In this document: one piece after another, positions 8,078 to 27,279 of the stretch
Layout: each line of letters begins with the position of its first letter
Numbering within the stretch: position 1 is the first letter of the stretch
Notes under the pieces: generated by a model
What the model was told of the DNA's origin: nothing
Seen by the model: the letters and a program-made list of their open reading frames with translations, nothing else
The model's database searches: none
Position numbers and translations under genes: made by a program
Virus record (IMG/VR): IMGVR_UViG_2541047774_000009
DNA from: a virus
Taxonomy: Duplodnaviria > Heunggongvirae > Uroviricota > Caudoviricetes
Length of the DNA: 27,279 bases
Strand: one strand, 5' to 3'

Positions 8078-8081
8078 ATCC

Positions 8082-8107
8082 AAAAAATACCCCTCCGGAG
8101 AGGGGTA
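8082..8107 (-). terminator. Minus-strand intrinsic terminator (candidate tR'-like)
   Basis: Perfect 8-bp stem TACCCCTC/GAGGGGTA (8088-8095/8100-8107) with 4-nt loop, followed on the minus strand by a U6 run (plus-strand AAAAAA 8082-8087). Confidence 0.5.
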
Positions 8108-8396
8108 TCATACAAGGGGATGACCATGATGCATGGTGCCGGGTGCCTCCCGGTGAGTCCGGCATCAGCATACGAACCCGCGATTATCCCAGAACTGACT
8201 GCTGATTCGCCCCGCCGCTTAGGGGGATTCACCATGCGTTTTTTTATTTACAAACTCTTCGCCAGACAAACAACCATTAACTGGCTGAATTGTGAGGTAT
8301 TTCAATTTTTAGAAAACTGACCAACCTCCGCTTATACGCCGGGCATGGAGCGGATACAAAAAAGCCCCGCAAAAGCAGATCAGAAGGATTCGTTGT

Positions 8397-16571: not shown

Positions 16572-17400
16572 GACGATGCCCTCCGCTGATATTCAGGAGA
16601 CGGTGAATATGAAAATTAGCCTTATCCGCCAGACGAATACGTTCAGCTTGCAAGTTAAGAAGGGTTTCTACCAGAACCTGATGTGCCTGCGGATCCGAAA
16701 GAGTTACCTTGCGCAGAGCACGTAGTGCAGTTGTTACATAACTGAGTTTATGTAAGTCTTCATCATTCAGACGAGTGAGGGCTGGGACAGTAGCCATGAT
16801 GGCAGCCTCCGTATGCAATGGATAACTTCCACCACCGGAAACGCCAATTTCGCTGGTGGTGAACTGAGCAGGGTTGGCGTAACCGGCGCATACGGAAACC
16901 GGCGCACCTTTCGGTGCCCCCACCCAGCCCACCATAATTTGGGTATAGCTGAGTTGTAGCAACAAAAAAGACGCTAACGCGCCAATTGTCGCCGTATGCA
17001 ATTCCAGGACGCCAATCCCGGCACCCGCTTTATAAGGTGCCTGAACAGTGTAACGTCCCGGAATGGCAGAATCAATGTGCTGGTGGTCCTTCACACTCAA
17101 CAAAATCACGCCTGAATTTCCACAAAGGGCTAAAGCACTCATGCGGGTAGTCTTTGCGAAGATAGATAACGCGCTGTGTTTCTGGCTCCCAACGAATAAC
17201 ATGAACATAAAGTCCTCTTCCGTCACGAAACCAGCGGTTAAGTTCCTGCACAACTCGCCCCCCACAGTCAGGTAAAGTTCTCTGTGGTTACTTACAGCCA
17301 GGAGATTTGGTAATCTGCATTCATGCCGTAACAACAGGTGTTCAGCGACGCTGACCACCAGCTGTTGCGACAAACGGTTATTTGCCGTTAAACTGTTCAT
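16564..17400 (-). CDS. Hypothetical protein (278 aa)
   Basis: Long ORF tightly packed in early-right operon with ATGA overlap to upstream gene; no family recognised. Confidence 0.5.
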   Translation of the reverse strand: MNSLTANNRLSQQLVVSVAEHLLLRHECRLPNLLAVSNHRELYLTVGGELCRNLTAGFVTEEDFMFMLFVGSQKHSALSIFAKTTRMSALALCGNSGVILLSVKDHQHIDSAIPGRYTVQAPYKAGAGIGVLELHTATIGALASFLLLQLSYTQIMVGWVGAPKGAPVSVCAGYANPAQFTTSEIGVSGGGSYPLHTEAAIMATVPALTRLNDEDLHKLSYVTTALRALRKVTLSDPQAHQVLVETLLNLQAERIRLADKANFHIHRLLNISGGHRHA

Positions 17401-21530: not shown

Positions 21531-21638
21531 AAATCAGCACGTACGAATTCAAACTCTGCCATAAAAGAACATATAAGTAATTTATTAACATATAGATATA
21601 GGTTATATTACAAATTGAACAATTATTGGAGAGCAACA

Positions 21639-22505
21639 ATGAATCAAAATCCATTCTCATTCTATGACTTTCTTGGATATTTAATACCAGGTGGTTTTTT
21701 TATCCTATTAATGTATTTCTGTGGTTTGACATTCGATCTAGATATTGTTATTGACTTAAGTGAATTGCTCAGAGGTCAAAGTCAAATCTTTGGCATTTTG
21801 AACTACGCTTCAATAGTTATTATATCTTATATAGCTGGACATTTTATTTCTATCACGTCAGCATTTTTTATCGAAAAACACATGAATAAAGAATTAGGAT
21901 ATCCTTCCAAATATCTATTTAAAAAATTGATAGATACCTCAGAAAGCATTTGTAGCCCATCATGCGATGAGAGAAGCGCTGATAAAAAAACAAAAATAAA
22001 GAATCGCATAATCAAATGCGTATTATGCCCAATAATACTATGGGATTTTATAACACAAAAACTATGTTATTCTCAATCTCTACCATTTCATTTAGCTAAT
22101 ACAACATGGTTAATGATCAAAGAAGGTTATGAGAAAAAGTTCATAACAAATCGCCAATTATTACAAGATAAAAACGGACTTGATGATGATCTCTTCAGAT
22201 TGGCATATCATTATGTTTATGAGTTTTCAAAACAACATCAAACAAAAATTCAAAACTATGTTGCATTATATGGTTTTTGCAGAAACATATGTTTAATCTT
22301 TATAATTTCATTTTGGGTATCAGTTCCAACCTTTATTTATCGATTATGTACTCATAGTGATTATCTTTATAGTTTACTTTCAATAATGCTTAGCTTTTTC
22401 TTCGTCTATGTTTTCTATGTTGGTTTTGTTAAATTTTATAGAAGATATACTTTAGAAGTATTAATGGCATTTGCTGTACTTCAAAGTAACGACACTATTC
22501 GTTAA
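21639..22505 (+). CDS. Hypothetical multi-pass membrane protein (288 aa), AT-rich moron
   Basis: GGAGAG RBS before ATG 21639; at least five hydrophobic helices (e.g. FFILLMYFCGLTF, IFGILNYASIVIISYIAGHFISITSAFFI, CRNICLIFIISFWVSVPTFIY, LLSIMLSFFFVYVFYVGFV); very low GC relative to flanking phage DNA. Confidence 0.6.
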   Translation: MNQNPFSFYDFLGYLIPGGFFILLMYFCGLTFDLDIVIDLSELLRGQSQIFGILNYASIVIISYIAGHFISITSAFFIEKHMNKELGYPSKYLFKKLIDTSESICSPSCDERSADKKTKIKNRIIKCVLCPIILWDFITQKLCYSQSLPFHLANTTWLMIKEGYEKKFITNRQLLQDKNGLDDDLFRLAYHYVYEFSKQHQTKIQNYVALYGFCRNICLIFIISFWVSVPTFIYRLCTHSDYLYSLLSIMLSFFFVYVFYVGFVKFYRRYTLEVLMAFAVLQSNDTIR

Positions 22506-22546: not shown

Positions 22547-22753
22547 ATGCTGAACCTCGATTGTGTTCCTATCTCAACTTATTGCAAAGAAACTGGCGAA
22601 ACTCCTGAAGCAATAAACAAACGTGTACAGCGCGGTGTTTGGCGTGAAGGTGTTCAGGTTTTAAAGGTTGAAGGCGTTAAGGAGAGGTGGATTGATCTTA
22701 GTGAGGTTGCAAAATGGGCCAGACAAAACTGCTCAAACTACCGCGCGGCGTAA
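22547..22753 (+). CDS. xis: Excisionase-like protein (68 aa; alternative start 22535)
   Basis: Small basic ORF immediately upstream of and overlapping int by 40 nt; GGAG RBS; resembles prophage excisionase-like proteins. Confidence 0.6.
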   Translation: MLNLDCVPISTYCKETGETPEAINKRVQRGVWREGVQVLKVEGVKERWIDLSEVAKWARQNCSNYRAA

Positions 22754-23889
22754 CAATCAGGAAACACCGCCAGGGCGAAACGATCAATATAACTTTCACC
22801 TACAAAGGAGTTAGATGTCGTGAGCCGCTTTCCAATCTGGAAGTAACACCAAAGAACATTAAATACGCCGAGCGTACACTCGGCGAAATCCATAATAAGA
22901 TCGAAAGGGGAACATTCATTTATGCAGAATATTTTCCCCGTTCTGCTCGTTTGAAAATTTTTGGTAATGCTGCTGCAGGCAAAACGGTAAAGATGTACCT
23001 GGACGAATATCTTGAAATCTGCGAAACAAGAAAACTTTCACCCTCTACGATTGGTGGCTATAAAAAATGCCGTAGTGCGTTAGCCTCACTTCACATTTGC
23101 CCTGCAAGTGAATTAACACCAGCAACCCTGAAAGCGTGGATTCAAAGCCAGAAAACAACCTTAAAAACCATTCGCAACCAGTTATCTTTCCTGCGGTCAG
23201 CACTTGATGAAGCCGTGACCGATGGGGTACTTCAAATTAACCCCGTATCGTTAGTAACAGCTTCGCGCTACCAAAGTGATAAGTCAGAAGCAGAAAGCAG
23301 CTATGTGGTTGATCCGCTATCACCAGCAGAAGTTGATGCATTACTAGCAGCAGCCGGAAACAAACAATGGGAAAATCTGTTCCGGTTCGCTATACATACA
23401 GGCCTGCGTAGTTCTGAACTATGTGCCCTTCGATGGCGTGATATCGACTTTGTTGGAAAAACAGCACATGTCCAGAGCGCAAGTGTTGTTGGTGTTATCA
23501 AAGGGACCAAAACAAAAGCCGGTACTCGTAAAGTTGAACTGACAGAAGAGGCAATGTTGGCGCTGATAAATCAGAAGCCATTTACGTTCATGAAAGATGC
23601 TACGGTCTTTGAAGATCCAAAGACCAATAAGCCTTGGGCAAGTGCTGATGCAATCAGGAAAAAAGCATGGGTGCCAACATTGCGAAAAGCAGGTATTCGC
23701 TACAGAAACCCATATCAGACCAGGCACACTTATGCTACTAAGTACATTAGCCAAGGAGCTAATCTCTTCTGGCTAGCAGGGCAGATGGGGCATAAGGGGC
23801 CCGAAATGTTGTTTCGTCATTATGGGCGTTACTTGAGTGATTATGACAACCACAGCTCAACAACGCTCACAAGTAATTGCAAAAAGTAG
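22714..23889 (+). CDS. int: Tyrosine integrase (391 aa)
   Basis: Catalytic-domain motifs HTGLRSSEL (Arg), RHTYATK (His/Arg) and LFRHYGRYL (Tyr nucleophile); N-terminal arm-binding-like domain. Confidence 0.9.
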   Translation: MGQTKLLKLPRGVTIRKHRQGETINITFTYKGVRCREPLSNLEVTPKNIKYAERTLGEIHNKIERGTFIYAEYFPRSARLKIFGNAAAGKTVKMYLDEYLEICETRKLSPSTIGGYKKCRSALASLHICPASELTPATLKAWIQSQKTTLKTIRNQLSFLRSALDEAVTDGVLQINPVSLVTASRYQSDKSEAESSYVVDPLSPAEVDALLAAAGNKQWENLFRFAIHTGLRSSELCALRWRDIDFVGKTAHVQSASVVGVIKGTKTKAGTRKVELTEEAMLALINQKPFTFMKDATVFEDPKTNKPWASADAIRKKAWVPTLRKAGIRYRNPYQTRHTYATKYISQGANLFWLAGQMGHKGPEMLFRHYGRYLSDYDNHSSTTLTSNCKK

Positions 23890-24139
23890 CCTTGAGCAAG
23901 GTAAAGCATGTTATTCAAAGAAGCCTATTTCGTTCAAAACGAGAGGTCCTCCACAAATCCACGCTTGAATAGGTATTCTTTACAATTATGAGCATACCCC
24001 TTATAGATTTATTCCATTGAAAAATGCCATCCCCCTGATAAAACAACAGTATTATTGTTTCAAAAAAAATGTTATAAGTAAATTCACTTACATGTAACGT
24101 TTAAATTTTTGTTTAAGAAGTATAAATTAGAGGGATAAA

Positions 24140-24991
24140 ATGACTACACCAGTAATAAGTTTCATAAATATGAAAGGTGGGGTTGGTAAAACAACTTTAT
24201 GCGTCGGCATTGCTGAATATCTTGCAAACTTCATGGATAAAAAGGTATTAATTATCGATATTGACCCACAATTTAACGCTACACAGTCAATACTTAGTAA
24301 ATATGATCGAGTGAAAGAGTATATAGCTGATCACTTAGAAAATACAAAAACCATCAGACGAATATTCGAGACAAAATCAAGCTTAACGGGTAAAGTTCAG
24401 CAGGTCACTCCTGATGAAATTATCATCAAGATGTCAGAGCACTTAGATATGATTTTTGGTGATATTAATACAATATTTGATATTGAACAACCTGCGGCAA
24501 GATTACATAAGCTAAAACGCTTTATAGAAGAACATAAGCTTCGAGATATATATGACTTCATTTTGATCGATAGCCCACCAACCATTTCATTATTTACTGA
24601 TGCAGCTCTCGTTGCTTCAGATTATTATATTGTGCCAGTTAAAATTGACCACTACTCAATTTTAGGTGCGACAAGTCTTTTAAGCGTAATAGAAAACATT
24701 CAAGATAATTATGACCATAAAAACATTCAAAACCTTGGTTTTATTTATACTAATACCCTAGAAAATCTATCAAAAAAGACAAAAAAGCTAAAGACAGACT
24801 TTGAAAGTACTGAACCTTTTAATGAACTATACTTTTTTGATAACCAGTTGAAGTTTGTACAGGATTTGATGGTGGGTGGTAGAGGTAATATATCATCAAG
24901 TTATAAATCATCCAGAAAATATATCAAAGCGATTTGTGAAGAGTTTTTAAGTCGGATCCAAGAAGTGCAAACGGGGGGGGAAGATGAATAA
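24140..24991 (+). CDS. ParA/MinD-family P-loop ATPase (283 aa)
   Basis: Deviant Walker A MKGGVGKTT, IDIDPQFNATQ motif, ILIDSPPTISLF Walker B-like segment; AGAGGGA RBS; AT-rich. Confidence 0.85.
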   Translation: MTTPVISFINMKGGVGKTTLCVGIAEYLANFMDKKVLIIDIDPQFNATQSILSKYDRVKEYIADHLENTKTIRRIFETKSSLTGKVQQVTPDEIIIKMSEHLDMIFGDINTIFDIEQPAARLHKLKRFIEEHKLRDIYDFILIDSPPTISLFTDAALVASDYYIVPVKIDHYSILGATSLLSVIENIQDNYDHKNIQNLGFIYTNTLENLSKKTKKLKTDFESTEPFNELYFFDNQLKFVQDLMVGGRGNISSSYKSSRKYIKAICEEFLSRIQEVQTGGEDE

Positions 24992-25397
24992 AAATAGTAA
25001 CAACCTCGAATTATTACAGACATTGGTTTATAAGAAGCCCTCGTCAAAAGAAGCGTTTATTGGTTTGATAACAATAGCAATCTATTCTAGGGAAATTTTT
25101 GTTAAAAATGAAGATGCAGCAGAATTCGTAAAAAATGTATTTGGATTAAGTTTCTTAGACTACGTCATCAAGTCAAGAACTTTATTATGCGCTAGACTTA
25201 CCCGTAATCTTGTAAATATGAGCGAGAGAGACATTAAAGAATGCATATATAAAGCATCAGAGTATTTTAAAACTGACAAATTTATTATTGGATATAATGA
25301 AAACTCACTTACTTTTAAAAAAAGTAACGTCAAACGTAATGCAAATCGAGATGTAGGTACGTGGATTAATGCTCTTTTGAAGAAGGATAGAAAATAA
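24984..25397 (+). CDS. Hypothetical protein (137 aa), second gene of ParA-like operon
   Basis: Start overlaps ParA stop by 8 nt; Lys/Asn-rich; no family recognised. Confidence 0.5.
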   Translation: MNKNSNNLELLQTLVYKKPSSKEAFIGLITIAIYSREIFVKNEDAAEFVKNVFGLSFLDYVIKSRTLLCARLTRNLVNMSERDIKECIYKASEYFKTDKFIIGYNENSLTFKKSNVKRNANRDVGTWINALLKKDRK

Positions 25398-26062
25398 TGC
25401 TTCAAAGAGACCCACATGGATTTAGAAAAGACGTAAAAGAATTTATCACAATGATAAAATCATTTCAGGTCGATATTCGCACCGAAAACAATCTTACATC
25501 GGCTTATAAACATGTGCTTTTTCTGGAGTTTATCCATAACTCACATCCAGAAATAAGTCACAAAACCTTTATAAAAAGTATTATTTATGATGTTTTAAGT
25601 TCAATTACAGCGATACTTCATAAACGAGAGCGATATCTTCATCTTAATTTTCGCTCAATGATTGAACATCTTGCACGTATATCCTTACAAAAAGTTGATA
25701 ACGGGGGGGATTTCGATATTACAATTAGAACTCTTGATTTCGAGAATCTTAAATCTACCAACACTGATGAAAACTGGGCGTACATGCATTCACAGTATAA
25801 ACAAGCATGTGGCTGGTTACACTCATCATCTAAAGTTAAATTAAATATCACAGCATCATTTCCAGATTTATTAAAGTCTGATTCAAAAAGTAATGCAGCT
25901 AAACTGTCAACCCATTTGCAAAAGATGACTACCGAAATGTTAAAGATTTTTTTTAACTACTATGTTGATGAGATTCAAACTTCTTTTTACCGCACACGGG
26001 GAGAAATGAGGTATGTGCTTGGCAACCATAACTTCGAATATTTTTTAAGCAAGAATCCATAA
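25397..26062 (+). CDS. Hypothetical protein (221 aa), third gene of ParA-like operon
   Basis: ATG overlaps upstream stop (TAATG), AAGGA RBS; no family recognised. Confidence 0.5.
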   Translation: MLQRDPHGFRKDVKEFITMIKSFQVDIRTENNLTSAYKHVLFLEFIHNSHPEISHKTFIKSIIYDVLSSITAILHKRERYLHLNFRSMIEHLARISLQKVDNGGDFDITIRTLDFENLKSTNTDENWAYMHSQYKQACGWLHSSSKVKLNITASFPDLLKSDSKSNAAKLSTHLQKMTTEMLKIFFNYYVDEIQTSFYRTRGEMRYVLGNHNFEYFLSKNP

Positions 26063-26152: not shown

Positions 26153-26184
26153 GGACGCTGGTTCAACTCCCGCCAGCTCCACCA
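26153..26184 (+). other. ssrA: 3'-terminal fragment of ssrA (tmRNA) forming an attachment-site junction
   Basis: GGACGCTGGTTCAACTCCCGCCAGCTCCACCA matches the E. coli tmRNA 3' end (T-arm and CCA) with one G-to-T difference in the T-stem; upstream sequence is AT-rich and unrelated to the ssrA body. Confidence 0.8.
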
Positions 26185-26231
26185 AAATTCTCCATCGGTG
26201 ATTACCAGAGTCATCCGATGAAGTCCTAAGA

Positions 26232-26264: not shown

Positions 26265-26388
26265 TGCCTTGAATTTGTCCCGCGAAGTCTGATGCCAACT
26301 AATTAAATCCGAACCTTTTAGGCACCTTGTTAGGCACCTCATAAAGCTTTATTGTTTTTGAGGTGCCTAAAACTATGGAAACCCGGCA

Positions 26389-27279
26389 ATGGCAAGACAA
26401 ACCAAACCTCTCTCCGTTAAGGAAATCGAATCAGCCAAACCCAAAGAAGTGGACTACGTTCTCTATGATGGTGATGGCCTTGAGCTACTCATCAAATCCA
26501 GCGGGAGTAAAATCTGGCAGTTTCGCTACATTCGCCCTGTCACCAAGAAACGTGCGAAGAAGAGCATTGGCCCCTACCCGTCAGTTACGCTTGCCGATGC
26601 AAGAAACTATCGCGCAGAGTCTCGTTCTCTTCTGGCGAAACAAATCGACCCTCAGGAACATCAGCAAGAACAACTTCGCAGTTCGCTGGAAGCTAAAACC
26701 AATACTTTCCAGCTCGTGGCTGAACGTTGGTGGAATGTGAAGAAAACCAGTGTGACCGAAGACTACGCAGAGGATATCTGGCGCTCTCTTGAGAGAGATG
26801 TTTTTCCTGCGATTGGCGACGTTAGCGTTACAGATATTAAAGCTCACACACTGGTTCAGGCCGTCCAACCGGTTCAGGCCAGAGGAGCACTGGAAACCGT
26901 TCGTCGCCTGTGTCAGCGCATTAATGAGGTCATGATCTATGCCCAAAACACAGGGCTGATTGATGCTGTACCCAGCGTTAATATCGGTAAAGCATTCGAG
27001 AAGCCTCAGAAAAAGAACATGCCCAGCATTCGACCGGATCAGCTACCACAACTGATGCAAACAATGCGAACAGCCAGCATTAGTCTTTCCACACGCTGCC
27101 TGTTCATGTGGCAACTCCTTACTATTAGCCGCCCTGCCGAAGCGGCTGAAGCACGCTGGGAAGAGGTAGACATAGAAGCGCGAGAGTGGAAGATTCCTGC
27201 AGCACGTATGAAAATGAACCGCGACCATACTGTTCCATTGTCAGATGAAGCAATTGTGTCAACGACGGATGAAAAGTGA
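26389..27279 (+). CDS. intA: IntA-like (P4/CP4-57 family) integrase, apparently truncated at 296 aa
   Basis: MARQTKPLSVKEIESAKPKEVDYVLYDGDGLELLIKSSGSKIWQFRYIRP... P4-family integrase N-terminal and core-binding regions; in-frame TGA at 27277-27279 before the catalytic His/Arg/Tyr region. Confidence 0.75.
   Translation: MARQTKPLSVKEIESAKPKEVDYVLYDGDGLELLIKSSGSKIWQFRYIRPVTKKRAKKSIGPYPSVTLADARNYRAESRSLLAKQIDPQEHQQEQLRSSLEAKTNTFQLVAERWWNVKKTSVTEDYAEDIWRSLERDVFPAIGDVSVTDIKAHTLVQAVQPVQARGALETVRRLCQRINEVMIYAQNTGLIDAVPSVNIGKAFEKPQKKNMPSIRPDQLPQLMQTMRTASISLSTRCLFMWQLLTISRPAEAAEARWEEVDIEAREWKIPAARMKMNRDHTVPLSDEAIVSTTDEK

Follow-up and report, generated by a model that had tools for sequence, protein, structure and literature searches.

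The question raised by this locus is whether three genes led by a ParA/MinD-type ATPase, found at the edge of a prophage, serve plasmid-type partition or something else. The window, that is the whole stretch of 27,279 nucleotides that was analysed, carries them on the plus strand, as it does all the features described below. The remA-like gene (24140..24991, an ORF of 852 nt encoding the 283-aa protein A) is a ParA/MinD-type P-loop ATPase gene; the remI-like gene (24984..25397, 414 nt, 137 aa, protein B) encodes an all-helical protein that would be the immunity or inhibitor component; and the remN-like gene (25397..26062, 666 nt, 221 aa, protein C) encodes a HEPN-like nuclease by homology, with R86-S-M-I-E-H91 and H142. 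The first two genes overlap by 8 nt (ATGAATAA) and the last two by 1 nt (TAATG), all three reading frames are intact and the overlaps are conserved. The first-pass annotation had described three AT-rich overlapping genes, and the ORFs lie exactly where it placed them, with a GC content of 0.325 (0.496 for positions 1-21500 of the window), or about 0.33 against a phage backbone of about 0.50. In our judgement the operon is very probably an Escherichia coli lambdoid-prophage member of RemAIN, a three-component prophage competition and anti-phage system. The basis for this assignment is the homology of three proteins, the gene order and overlaps, the HEPN-like fold and motif, the prophage cargo context and the absence of partition features.

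The module is flanked upstream by the tyrosine integrase gene of the prophage (22714..23889; Pfam Arm-DNA-bind_2, E 1e-23, and Phage_integrase, E 4e-16; site-specific integrase in RefSeq). On the other side, at about 26153..26185, is the att core GGACGCTGGTTCAACTCCCGCCAGCTCCACCA, the phage-borne 3' end of ssrA, which marks the prophage boundary beside the module. In 721 E. coli genomes, this core and the sequence after it have matches in the ssrA 3' end and the flank downstream of it (annotated 'ssrA: transfer-messenger RNA'), and no complete tmRNA was found in the window. The junction was compared by alignment in the window, in a circular phage copy and in a chromosome where the adjoining island is another one. 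Since the three versions are identical through GCCAGCTCCACCA (ending in CCACCA) and diverge beyond it, the module is within the phage, with about 90 nt between it and the att core. The integrase domains, the ssrA match and the junction alignment thus agree with the location first given for the module, between the prophage integrase and an ssrA att fragment.

An AT-rich intergenic leader of 250 nt (23890..24139) separates the integrase gene from the remA-like gene and presumably holds the module's own promoter. A scan of the leader for consensus promoters returned weak promoter-like sites only, fewer than in shuffled sequences, and TGtTATAAG at 24070-24078, spotted by eye, is a possible extended -10 element. 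The leader also contains the palindrome TTACATGTAA (24088-24097), upstream of the ATPase gene, which had been proposed as an operator. A 10-bp perfect palindrome occurs in 38% of 2000 dinucleotide-preserving shuffles of the 250-nt region, the window as a whole holds 15 of them, and TTACATGTAA has no conserved counterpart ahead of the homologous modules L003 and L008 (the latter from Salmonella, see below). Given this chance-level frequency and the lack of conservation, the operator was rejected as unsupported.

Protein A is, as the first-pass annotation had it, a ParA/MinD-like ATPase, with matches to Pfam AAA_31 (E 1.9e-38) and CbiA (E 2.3e-16), a deviant Walker A motif KGGVGKT at residues 12-18 and an assignment to PHROG phrog_164. 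A three-way alignment of RemA-type ATPases shows no variation in the Walker A, A' and B regions. Type I (ParABS) partition ATPases likewise have the ParA/MinD fold and a deviant Walker A, but the module has no ParB, ParG or parS, is absent from plasmids apart from the circularised phage, and its ATPase scores far below the cut-off of every curated NCBIfam partition equivalog (78.6 bits against 400 for PrgP, 73.2 against 180 for ParA_partition and 37 against 725 for SopA).

RemAIN is a system of the Gifsy-1 prophage of Salmonella Typhimurium 14028, encoded by STM14_3218-3220 (remA, remI and remN; Sargen & Helaine, Cell Host Microbe 32:2063, 2024, as summarised in PMC13043305, PMC12724215 and PMC13492144). 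According to these summaries (PMC13043305, PMC12724215), RemN is a HEPN nuclease, RemAIN has anticodon nuclease activity and the small protein has an immunity role. The phenotypes given there are defence against external phages and a block of the lytic cycles of co-resident prophages. Transposon data for the same region gave a single Tn5 insertion in the middle gene and 223 and 103 in its neighbours (Kurasz et al., PMC9879122), as expected for an immunity gene. In one report, plasmid-borne remAIN was effective in one S. Typhimurium strain, 4/74, and ineffective in another, LT2 (PMC12724215), which suggests that RemAIN depends on the host.

The Salmonella counterpart was compared using L008, a 14028-type Gifsy-1 immunity region of Salmonella enterica with a repressor gene, an 840-bp ATPase gene, a small gene (387 nt) and a 663-bp gene. 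The 840-bp and 663-bp sizes agree with those of STM14_3218 and STM14_3220 in Kurasz et al. (PMC9879122), and a 210-aa ORF in the same region has R100-x4-H105, as published for HepS (STM14_3211; PMC13043305). All three window proteins have a homolog in this region: protein A is 58% identical over 276 aa to the 279-aa ATPase (E 6e-120), protein B 32% identical over 117 aa to the small protein (E 5e-19) and protein C 42% identical to its counterpart (E 5e-62). The two loci also have in common the gene order (first the ATPase at about 280 aa, then the small protein, then the HEPN-like one at about 220 aa), the RSMIEH motif, the status of low-GC cargo of a lambdoid prophage and, together with a second E. 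coli variant, the 8-nt (ATGxATAA) and 1-nt (TAATG) overlaps. They differ in that the window module has an E. coli host and diverged sequences, the immunity-like protein most of all, and lies between int and att behind its own leader, whereas the Gifsy-1 copy starts 58 nt downstream of the repressor gene. The module had first been presented as undescribed, on the ground that no anti-phage system built on a ParA-like ATPase was known; this no longer stands, as RemAIN was published in 2024 and all three of its components have homologs here. The operon belongs to a known system, of which it is a new, divergent and unannotated member, and its place in the prophage is not that of the Gifsy-1 copy. 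The other half of that proposal, accessory or defence cargo rather than partition, was borne out by the RemAIN homology, the prophage cargo slot and the lack of partition features.

The two partner proteins had been called unknown and without ParB features. The second part of that description stands, with no ParB signature in either protein; the first does not, as the two are homologous to RemI and RemN, respectively, and the 221-aa protein is HEPN-like. The structure and HMM searches of the two proteins had a mixed outcome. Nothing was found for proteins B and C in Pfam, NCBIfam or the PDB (also when 15 and later 104 family members were scanned, and in PDB profile searches), and Foldseek returned no significant PDB match for the protein C model, while homology to the Salmonella locus was detected. 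The predicted model of protein B resembles no DNA-binding fold, and its core motif SRTL(L/I/M)xA is common to the RemI-like proteins of all six loci compared; by homology, protein B would be the immunity or inhibitor component.

Protein C has the all-alpha helical-bundle fold of HEPN proteins, and the R86-x4-H91 motif (RSMIEH) is present in it and in Salmonella RemN. Among 108 members of the wider family, R86, E90 and H142 are invariant, and at position 91 as many as 74% have Asn and only 10% have His. The assignment of the active site in protein C is uncertain because H91 is so rarely His and H142 is invariant. The Pfam HEPN models matched neither protein C nor 104 diverse relatives, which weakens the filing of the family at the sequence level only, not the assignment by fold or from the literature. 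Compared with HEPN-MNT (HepT-MntA) type II/VII toxin-antitoxin pairs, the module lacks the MNT partner and has an additional ParA-like ATPase, and protein C, which no Pfam HEPN model matches, exceeds HepT by about 90 aa. HepS, the solo Gifsy-1 HEPN anticodon nuclease (PMC13043305), is likewise a prophage HEPN RNase with Rx4H and provides anticodon nuclease defence, as RemAIN does, but it is a single gene with neither ATPase nor immunity partner, and comparison with protein C revealed no sequence similarity. In Salmonella, HepS acts independently of RemAIN (PMC13043305).

Among 5426 complete E. coli genomes, 16 carry the window variant, and identity does not fall below 99.6% in any of these 16 full-length copies. 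The host strains came from chicken meat, duck, fox, cattle, humans and seawater. A second trio variant was found in about 51 of the 5426 genomes (for example NZ_CP046396.1, in a prophage near yagU/ykgJ). It has the same three-gene layout (846, 399 and 666 nt) with the overlaps, and an integrase remnant adjoins it at the prophage end, but its proteins are 58%, 37% and 38% identical to those of the window, its integration site is another one and its upstream region is unrelated. Of the 68 E. coli genomes with matches, 67 carry them in chromosomal prophages and one on a circular record.

Beyond E. coli, a check of co-occurrence proposed at the outset revealed a conserved trio (about 280, 128-143 and about 220 aa) in prophage cargo slots of several genera. 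It is found at varied positions in prophages of E. coli, Salmonella, Proteus, Xenorhabdus and Clostridium botulinum: beside the repressor in Gifsy-1, among tail genes in Proteus, near Arc/Ant genes in Xenorhabdus and after lysis genes in C. botulinum. In every case its GC content is below that of the flanks. RemAIN-type cassettes also occur in Enterobacter, Klebsiella and Cronobacter. When one genome per species was scanned, only Erwinia sp. S63 yielded a relative, which marks the family as accessory cargo at the level of strains. The INPHARED phage collection gave no match to the module at the DNA or protein level, and PADLOC v2 gave none to proteins B and C and only a weak partial one to the ATPase (PDC-M28B, E 2e-7).

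If the module works like its homolog, the RemN-like product would be an RNase that cuts tRNA and the RemI-like protein would keep this nuclease harmless to the lysogen. The RemA-like ATPase would be the third part of the unit, licensing or controlling the nuclease without moving DNA. A rival phage or a co-resident prophage entering its lytic cycle would release the nuclease, and cutting of tRNA would stall translation and so block the lytic cycle. The cleaved RNA ends are further predicted to switch on RtcR together with the Rtc RNA-repair operon. Activity of the E. coli copy, its working as in Salmonella, the role of the ATPase and the nature of the trigger are inferred by analogy.

It is possible, but on balance unlikely, that the E. 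coli lineage differs in function, with another trigger or other tRNAs, expression from its own int-att leader and not by read-through from a repressor, and a non-canonical HEPN site formed by R86, E90 and H142 across the wider family. Regulation may indeed differ from that in Gifsy-1, given the int-att rather than repressor-side site, and the trigger and the tRNA target may differ from those of the Salmonella system at identities of only 32-58%. If the R86/E90/H142 site were true, the ParA-like ATPase could sense the state of the DNA or nucleoid and license the nuclease accordingly, which would give the ParA fold a new use in immunity.

We consider it improbable that the operon is an addiction module, in which a toxin-antitoxin pair with an accessory ATPase stabilises the prophage by killing cured cells and any anti-phage effect is incidental. 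A toxic HEPN-like nuclease that is paired with a small cognate immunity protein resembles a toxin-antitoxin system, the strong depletion of transposon insertions in the Salmonella middle gene (PMC9879122) fits such a pair, and from its att-adjacent site the module would be lost together with the prophage. Yet the phenotypes given for the Salmonella homolog in the summaries (PMC13043305; PMC12724215) are defence against external phages and a block of prophage lytic cycles, and the trio sits in varied moron slots of otherwise unrelated prophages, like defence cassettes. Addiction and defence roles are not mutually exclusive.

Passive carriage of an inactive or decaying remnant is very improbable. 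The variant is rare (the 16 genomes above) and the two poly-G tracts of the module, G8 and G7, could in principle frameshift, but the three ORFs are intact, the overlaps are conserved and every family-invariant residue is kept (R86, S87, E90, Y134 and H142 of protein C, and the Walker A motif of the ATPase). The four copies compared have at most 4 substitutions in 2.3 kb, no indels and stable G-tracts; the near identity of all 16 copies and the varied sources of the host strains, from chicken meat to seawater, also speak against decay. These tracts were also considered as a source of phase variation, an idea that was rejected because neither G8 nor G7 changes in length among the four copies.

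The least credible reading, to which we give hardly any weight, is a plasmid-type partition cassette (a ParA, a novel centromere-binding adaptor and a centromere) with the excised phage as a stable episome, that is a phage-plasmid: protein A has a genuine ParA/MinD ATPase fold and the whole phage has been deposited as a 44.6-kb circular 'plasmid' (NZ_CP148393.1) in one complete assembly, where it is that genome's only match, but ParB, ParG, RHH and HTH signatures are absent from both partners, the third gene is HEPN-like, no parS-like repeat array was found in or around the module (only two-copy short chance repeats and an A-rich low-complexity stretch), a tblastn search of 72,556 plasmids with protein C recovered the circular phage and none of the other 72,555, PLSDB gives that record no replicon type and calls it non-mobilizable, and deletion of the Salmonella region does not act via plasmid copy number or segregation (PMC9879122). 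Since its junction is a clean attP, the circular phage is an Int-mediated excision product. Partition was therefore rejected for want of a ParB-like partner, repeats, a plasmid distribution and an ATPase above the cut-offs.

The RemAIN assignment extends such cassettes outside Salmonella, to at least two diverged E. coli lineages, in about 1% of complete genomes of that species. It also points to an annotation gap, as RefSeq describes these cassettes only as a 'ParA family protein' and two hypothetical proteins, and Pfam, NCBIfam and PADLOC v2 have no models for the partner proteins. Recognising these cassettes avoids misreading them as partition genes or as signs of a phage-plasmid. The prediction that follows is that E. 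coli lysogens of this prophage would activate the RtcR/Rtc operon on SOS induction and would restrict rival lambdoid phages, and the diverged homologs would provide a comparison set for the roles of the ATPase and the immunity protein.

The three genes of the module are co-directional ORFs on the plus strand at 24140-24991 (A, the ParA-like ATPase, 283 aa), 24984-25397 (B, 137 aa), and 25397-26062 (C, 221 aa). As the first-pass annotation had placed them, they lie between a tyrosine integrase gene (22714-23889, plus strand; Arm-DNA-bind_2 and Phage_integrase) and an ssrA 3' fragment (~26153-26185, plus strand). A and B overlap by 8 nt (ATGAATAA) and B and C by 1 nt (TAATG), and the GC content of the module is 0.325 versus 0.496 over window positions 1-21500. 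The fragment with its flank matches the ssrA 3' end in 721 E. coli genomes, and no complete tmRNA is present within the window. A three-way alignment of the window, the same phage in circular form (L001), and a chromosome whose neighbouring island differs (L002) showed identity up to and including ...GCCAGCTCCACCA and none beyond. Therefore, the ssrA fragment is the att core and the module, ~90 nt inside it, is phage cargo. The perfect palindrome TTACATGTAA, found at 24088-24097, had been proposed as an operator; as a 10-bp palindrome arose in 38% of the shuffled versions (dinucleotide-preserving) of the 250-nt intergenic region and this one was not found upstream of homologous modules, we give it no weight as a meaningful element. 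The sole G runs of at least 7 in the 27-kb window, G8 (24973-24980; 3' end of A, just ahead of the B start codon) and G7 (25703-25709; within the codons of the conserved GG of C), both fall in this 32%-GC module, which is an odd coincidence. There was no evidence of phase variation through these tracts, because their lengths are identical in the four copies compared.

A second integrase gene (Arm-DNA-bind_3, Phage_int_M; plus strand) follows directly on the att core, starting at 26389 and running off the window, and is preceded by perfect 12-nt inverted repeats (26316-26327 and 26361-26372) containing TTAGGCACCT. This arrangement points to mobile elements in tandem at ssrA; other strains have either a P2-like prophage or another integrase island adjoining this end of the prophage. 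The window also has a second very AT-rich ORF (21615-22505, plus strand; 296 aa, GC 0.28-0.30), which is flanked by a yfdR-like HD phosphohydrolase gene and a xis-like gene; its sole PHROG is phrog_12528, of unknown function, and PADLOC gave a weak hit to the membrane protein Csx27 (E 2.8e-6). Strain 2015C-3163 carries other genes at this position, which resembles a further cargo or defence slot of the prophage. On the minus strand, Rfam matches over the gathering score were found for the sRNA STnc100 (8078-8266) and for a C4 antisense RNA (16852-16939) and the Hfq-binding sRNA IsrK (16964-17040), the last two lying side by side in the early or immunity region.

The module had been put forward as a candidate undescribed system, a claim that falls with the homology of all three proteins to a Salmonella system. 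In Gifsy-1 of S. Typhimurium 14028, Kurasz et al. 2023 described a three-gene region comprising an 840-bp ParA-like ATPase gene (STM14_3218), a small gene (STM14_3219), and a 663-bp gene (STM14_3220), and activation of the RNA-repair regulator RtcR in the SOS response needs this region (PMC9879122). The locus was given the name remAIN in Sargen et al. 2026 (PMC13043305), citing Sargen & Helaine 2024, and two further papers summarise RemAIN as blocking the lytic cycle both in co-resident prophages and in incoming phages (PMC12724215; PMC13492144). A protein search seeded with the C protein of a second, diverged E. coli variant found P0217, a 220-aa Salmonella enterica protein. Its locus (L008) reads Q, NinG, DinI, a 210-aa ORF, P, O, cII-like, cro-like, repressor, and then a 279-aa ParA-like gene (840 bp), a 128-aa gene, the 220-aa gene (663 bp), and recE. 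Both the layout and the gene sizes agree with those reported for the variable region of Gifsy-1 in strain 14028, and R100-x4-H105 in the 210-aa ORF is precisely the motif reported for HepS. A is 58% identical to the 279-aa ATPase over 276 aa (E 6e-120), B 32% identical to the middle gene product over 117 aa (E 5e-19), and C 42% identical to P0217 over 210 aa (E 5e-62), and both gene overlaps are alike in the two loci. By sequence, the operon is therefore homologous to RemAIN in each of its three components.

A is a ParA/MinD-type ATPase (AAA_31, E 1.9e-38) with the deviant Walker A motif KGGVGKT, and it scored far under the curated threshold of every NCBIfam partition equivalog. B and C had no match in Pfam, NCBIfam, or PADLOC, and their sole family membership is one PHROG each, of unknown function. 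The B model, with a helical core predicted confidently at residues 21-95 plus a C-terminal helix, had no informative structural neighbour. An exhaustive profile search gave a C family of 126 cluster representatives at E <=1e-3, nearly all of 215-240 aa. Over 108 full-length members, R86, E90, and H142 (window 25820-25822) are invariant (108/108) and S87, Y134, K38, D65, and R94 near-invariant. The Rx4H motif of C spans residues 86-91 (25652-25669), and its 'canonical' H91 is His in 10% of the 108 members (enterobacterial subclade only) and Asn in 74%. The Pfam HEPN models matched none of 104 family members. The C family may represent a non-canonical branch of HEPN proteins and may use a non-canonical HEPN active site, with H91 and H142 as candidate catalytic histidines.

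The exact variant of the window was present in 16 of 5426 complete E. coli genomes, and the second variant (58%, 37%, and 38% identical to A, B, and C) in ~51 further genomes of this set; RefSeq labels both as 'ParA family protein' and hypothetical proteins. C has close homologues in Enterobacter, Klebsiella, Cronobacter, Pseudescherichia, Proteus, and Pantoea. The proposed co-occurrence check found the same trio in prophages of E. coli, Salmonella, Proteus (among tail genes), Xenorhabdus (near Arc/Ant genes), and Clostridium botulinum (3' of holin and amidase genes), its GC lower than that of the flanks in every case. The module was absent from INPHARED phage records and was found in only one of the species-representative genomes. 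A plasmid-type partition system, which a ParA-like gene could suggest, was rejected given the varied prophage slots, the occurrence in 1 of 72,556 plasmid records, the absence of parS-like repeats, and the scores of A under the partition thresholds. The distribution fits a mobile defence cassette. The earlier judgement that the module is cargo, probably defensive and not for partition, was correct.

The homology, the architecture, the fold and motif, and the context were observed here; the nuclease role, the immunity role, and the phenotypes come from the literature on the Salmonella system. By homology with that system, C would be an RNase effector and B its immunity protein. In Salmonella, Tn5 insertions numbered 1 in the middle gene versus 223 and 103 in its neighbours (PMC9879122), a depletion consistent with an immunity role. 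If the unit is active in E. coli, A would be the ATPase required for its function, and the nuclease would presumably be unleashed when a rival phage or a co-resident prophage enters lytic development. Cleavage of tRNAs, the probable targets, would then stop translation and thereby both lysis and the production of phage. RtcR is activated by 2',3'-cyclic-phosphate ends, which HEPN RNases produce, so cleavage of this kind would explain the Salmonella RtcR phenotype.

The module of the window is a divergent member of the RemAIN family in a different prophage position (the int-att junction, versus the immunity region in Gifsy-1) and a different host (E. coli, versus Salmonella). It is useful chiefly for annotation and for dissecting RemAIN by comparison.
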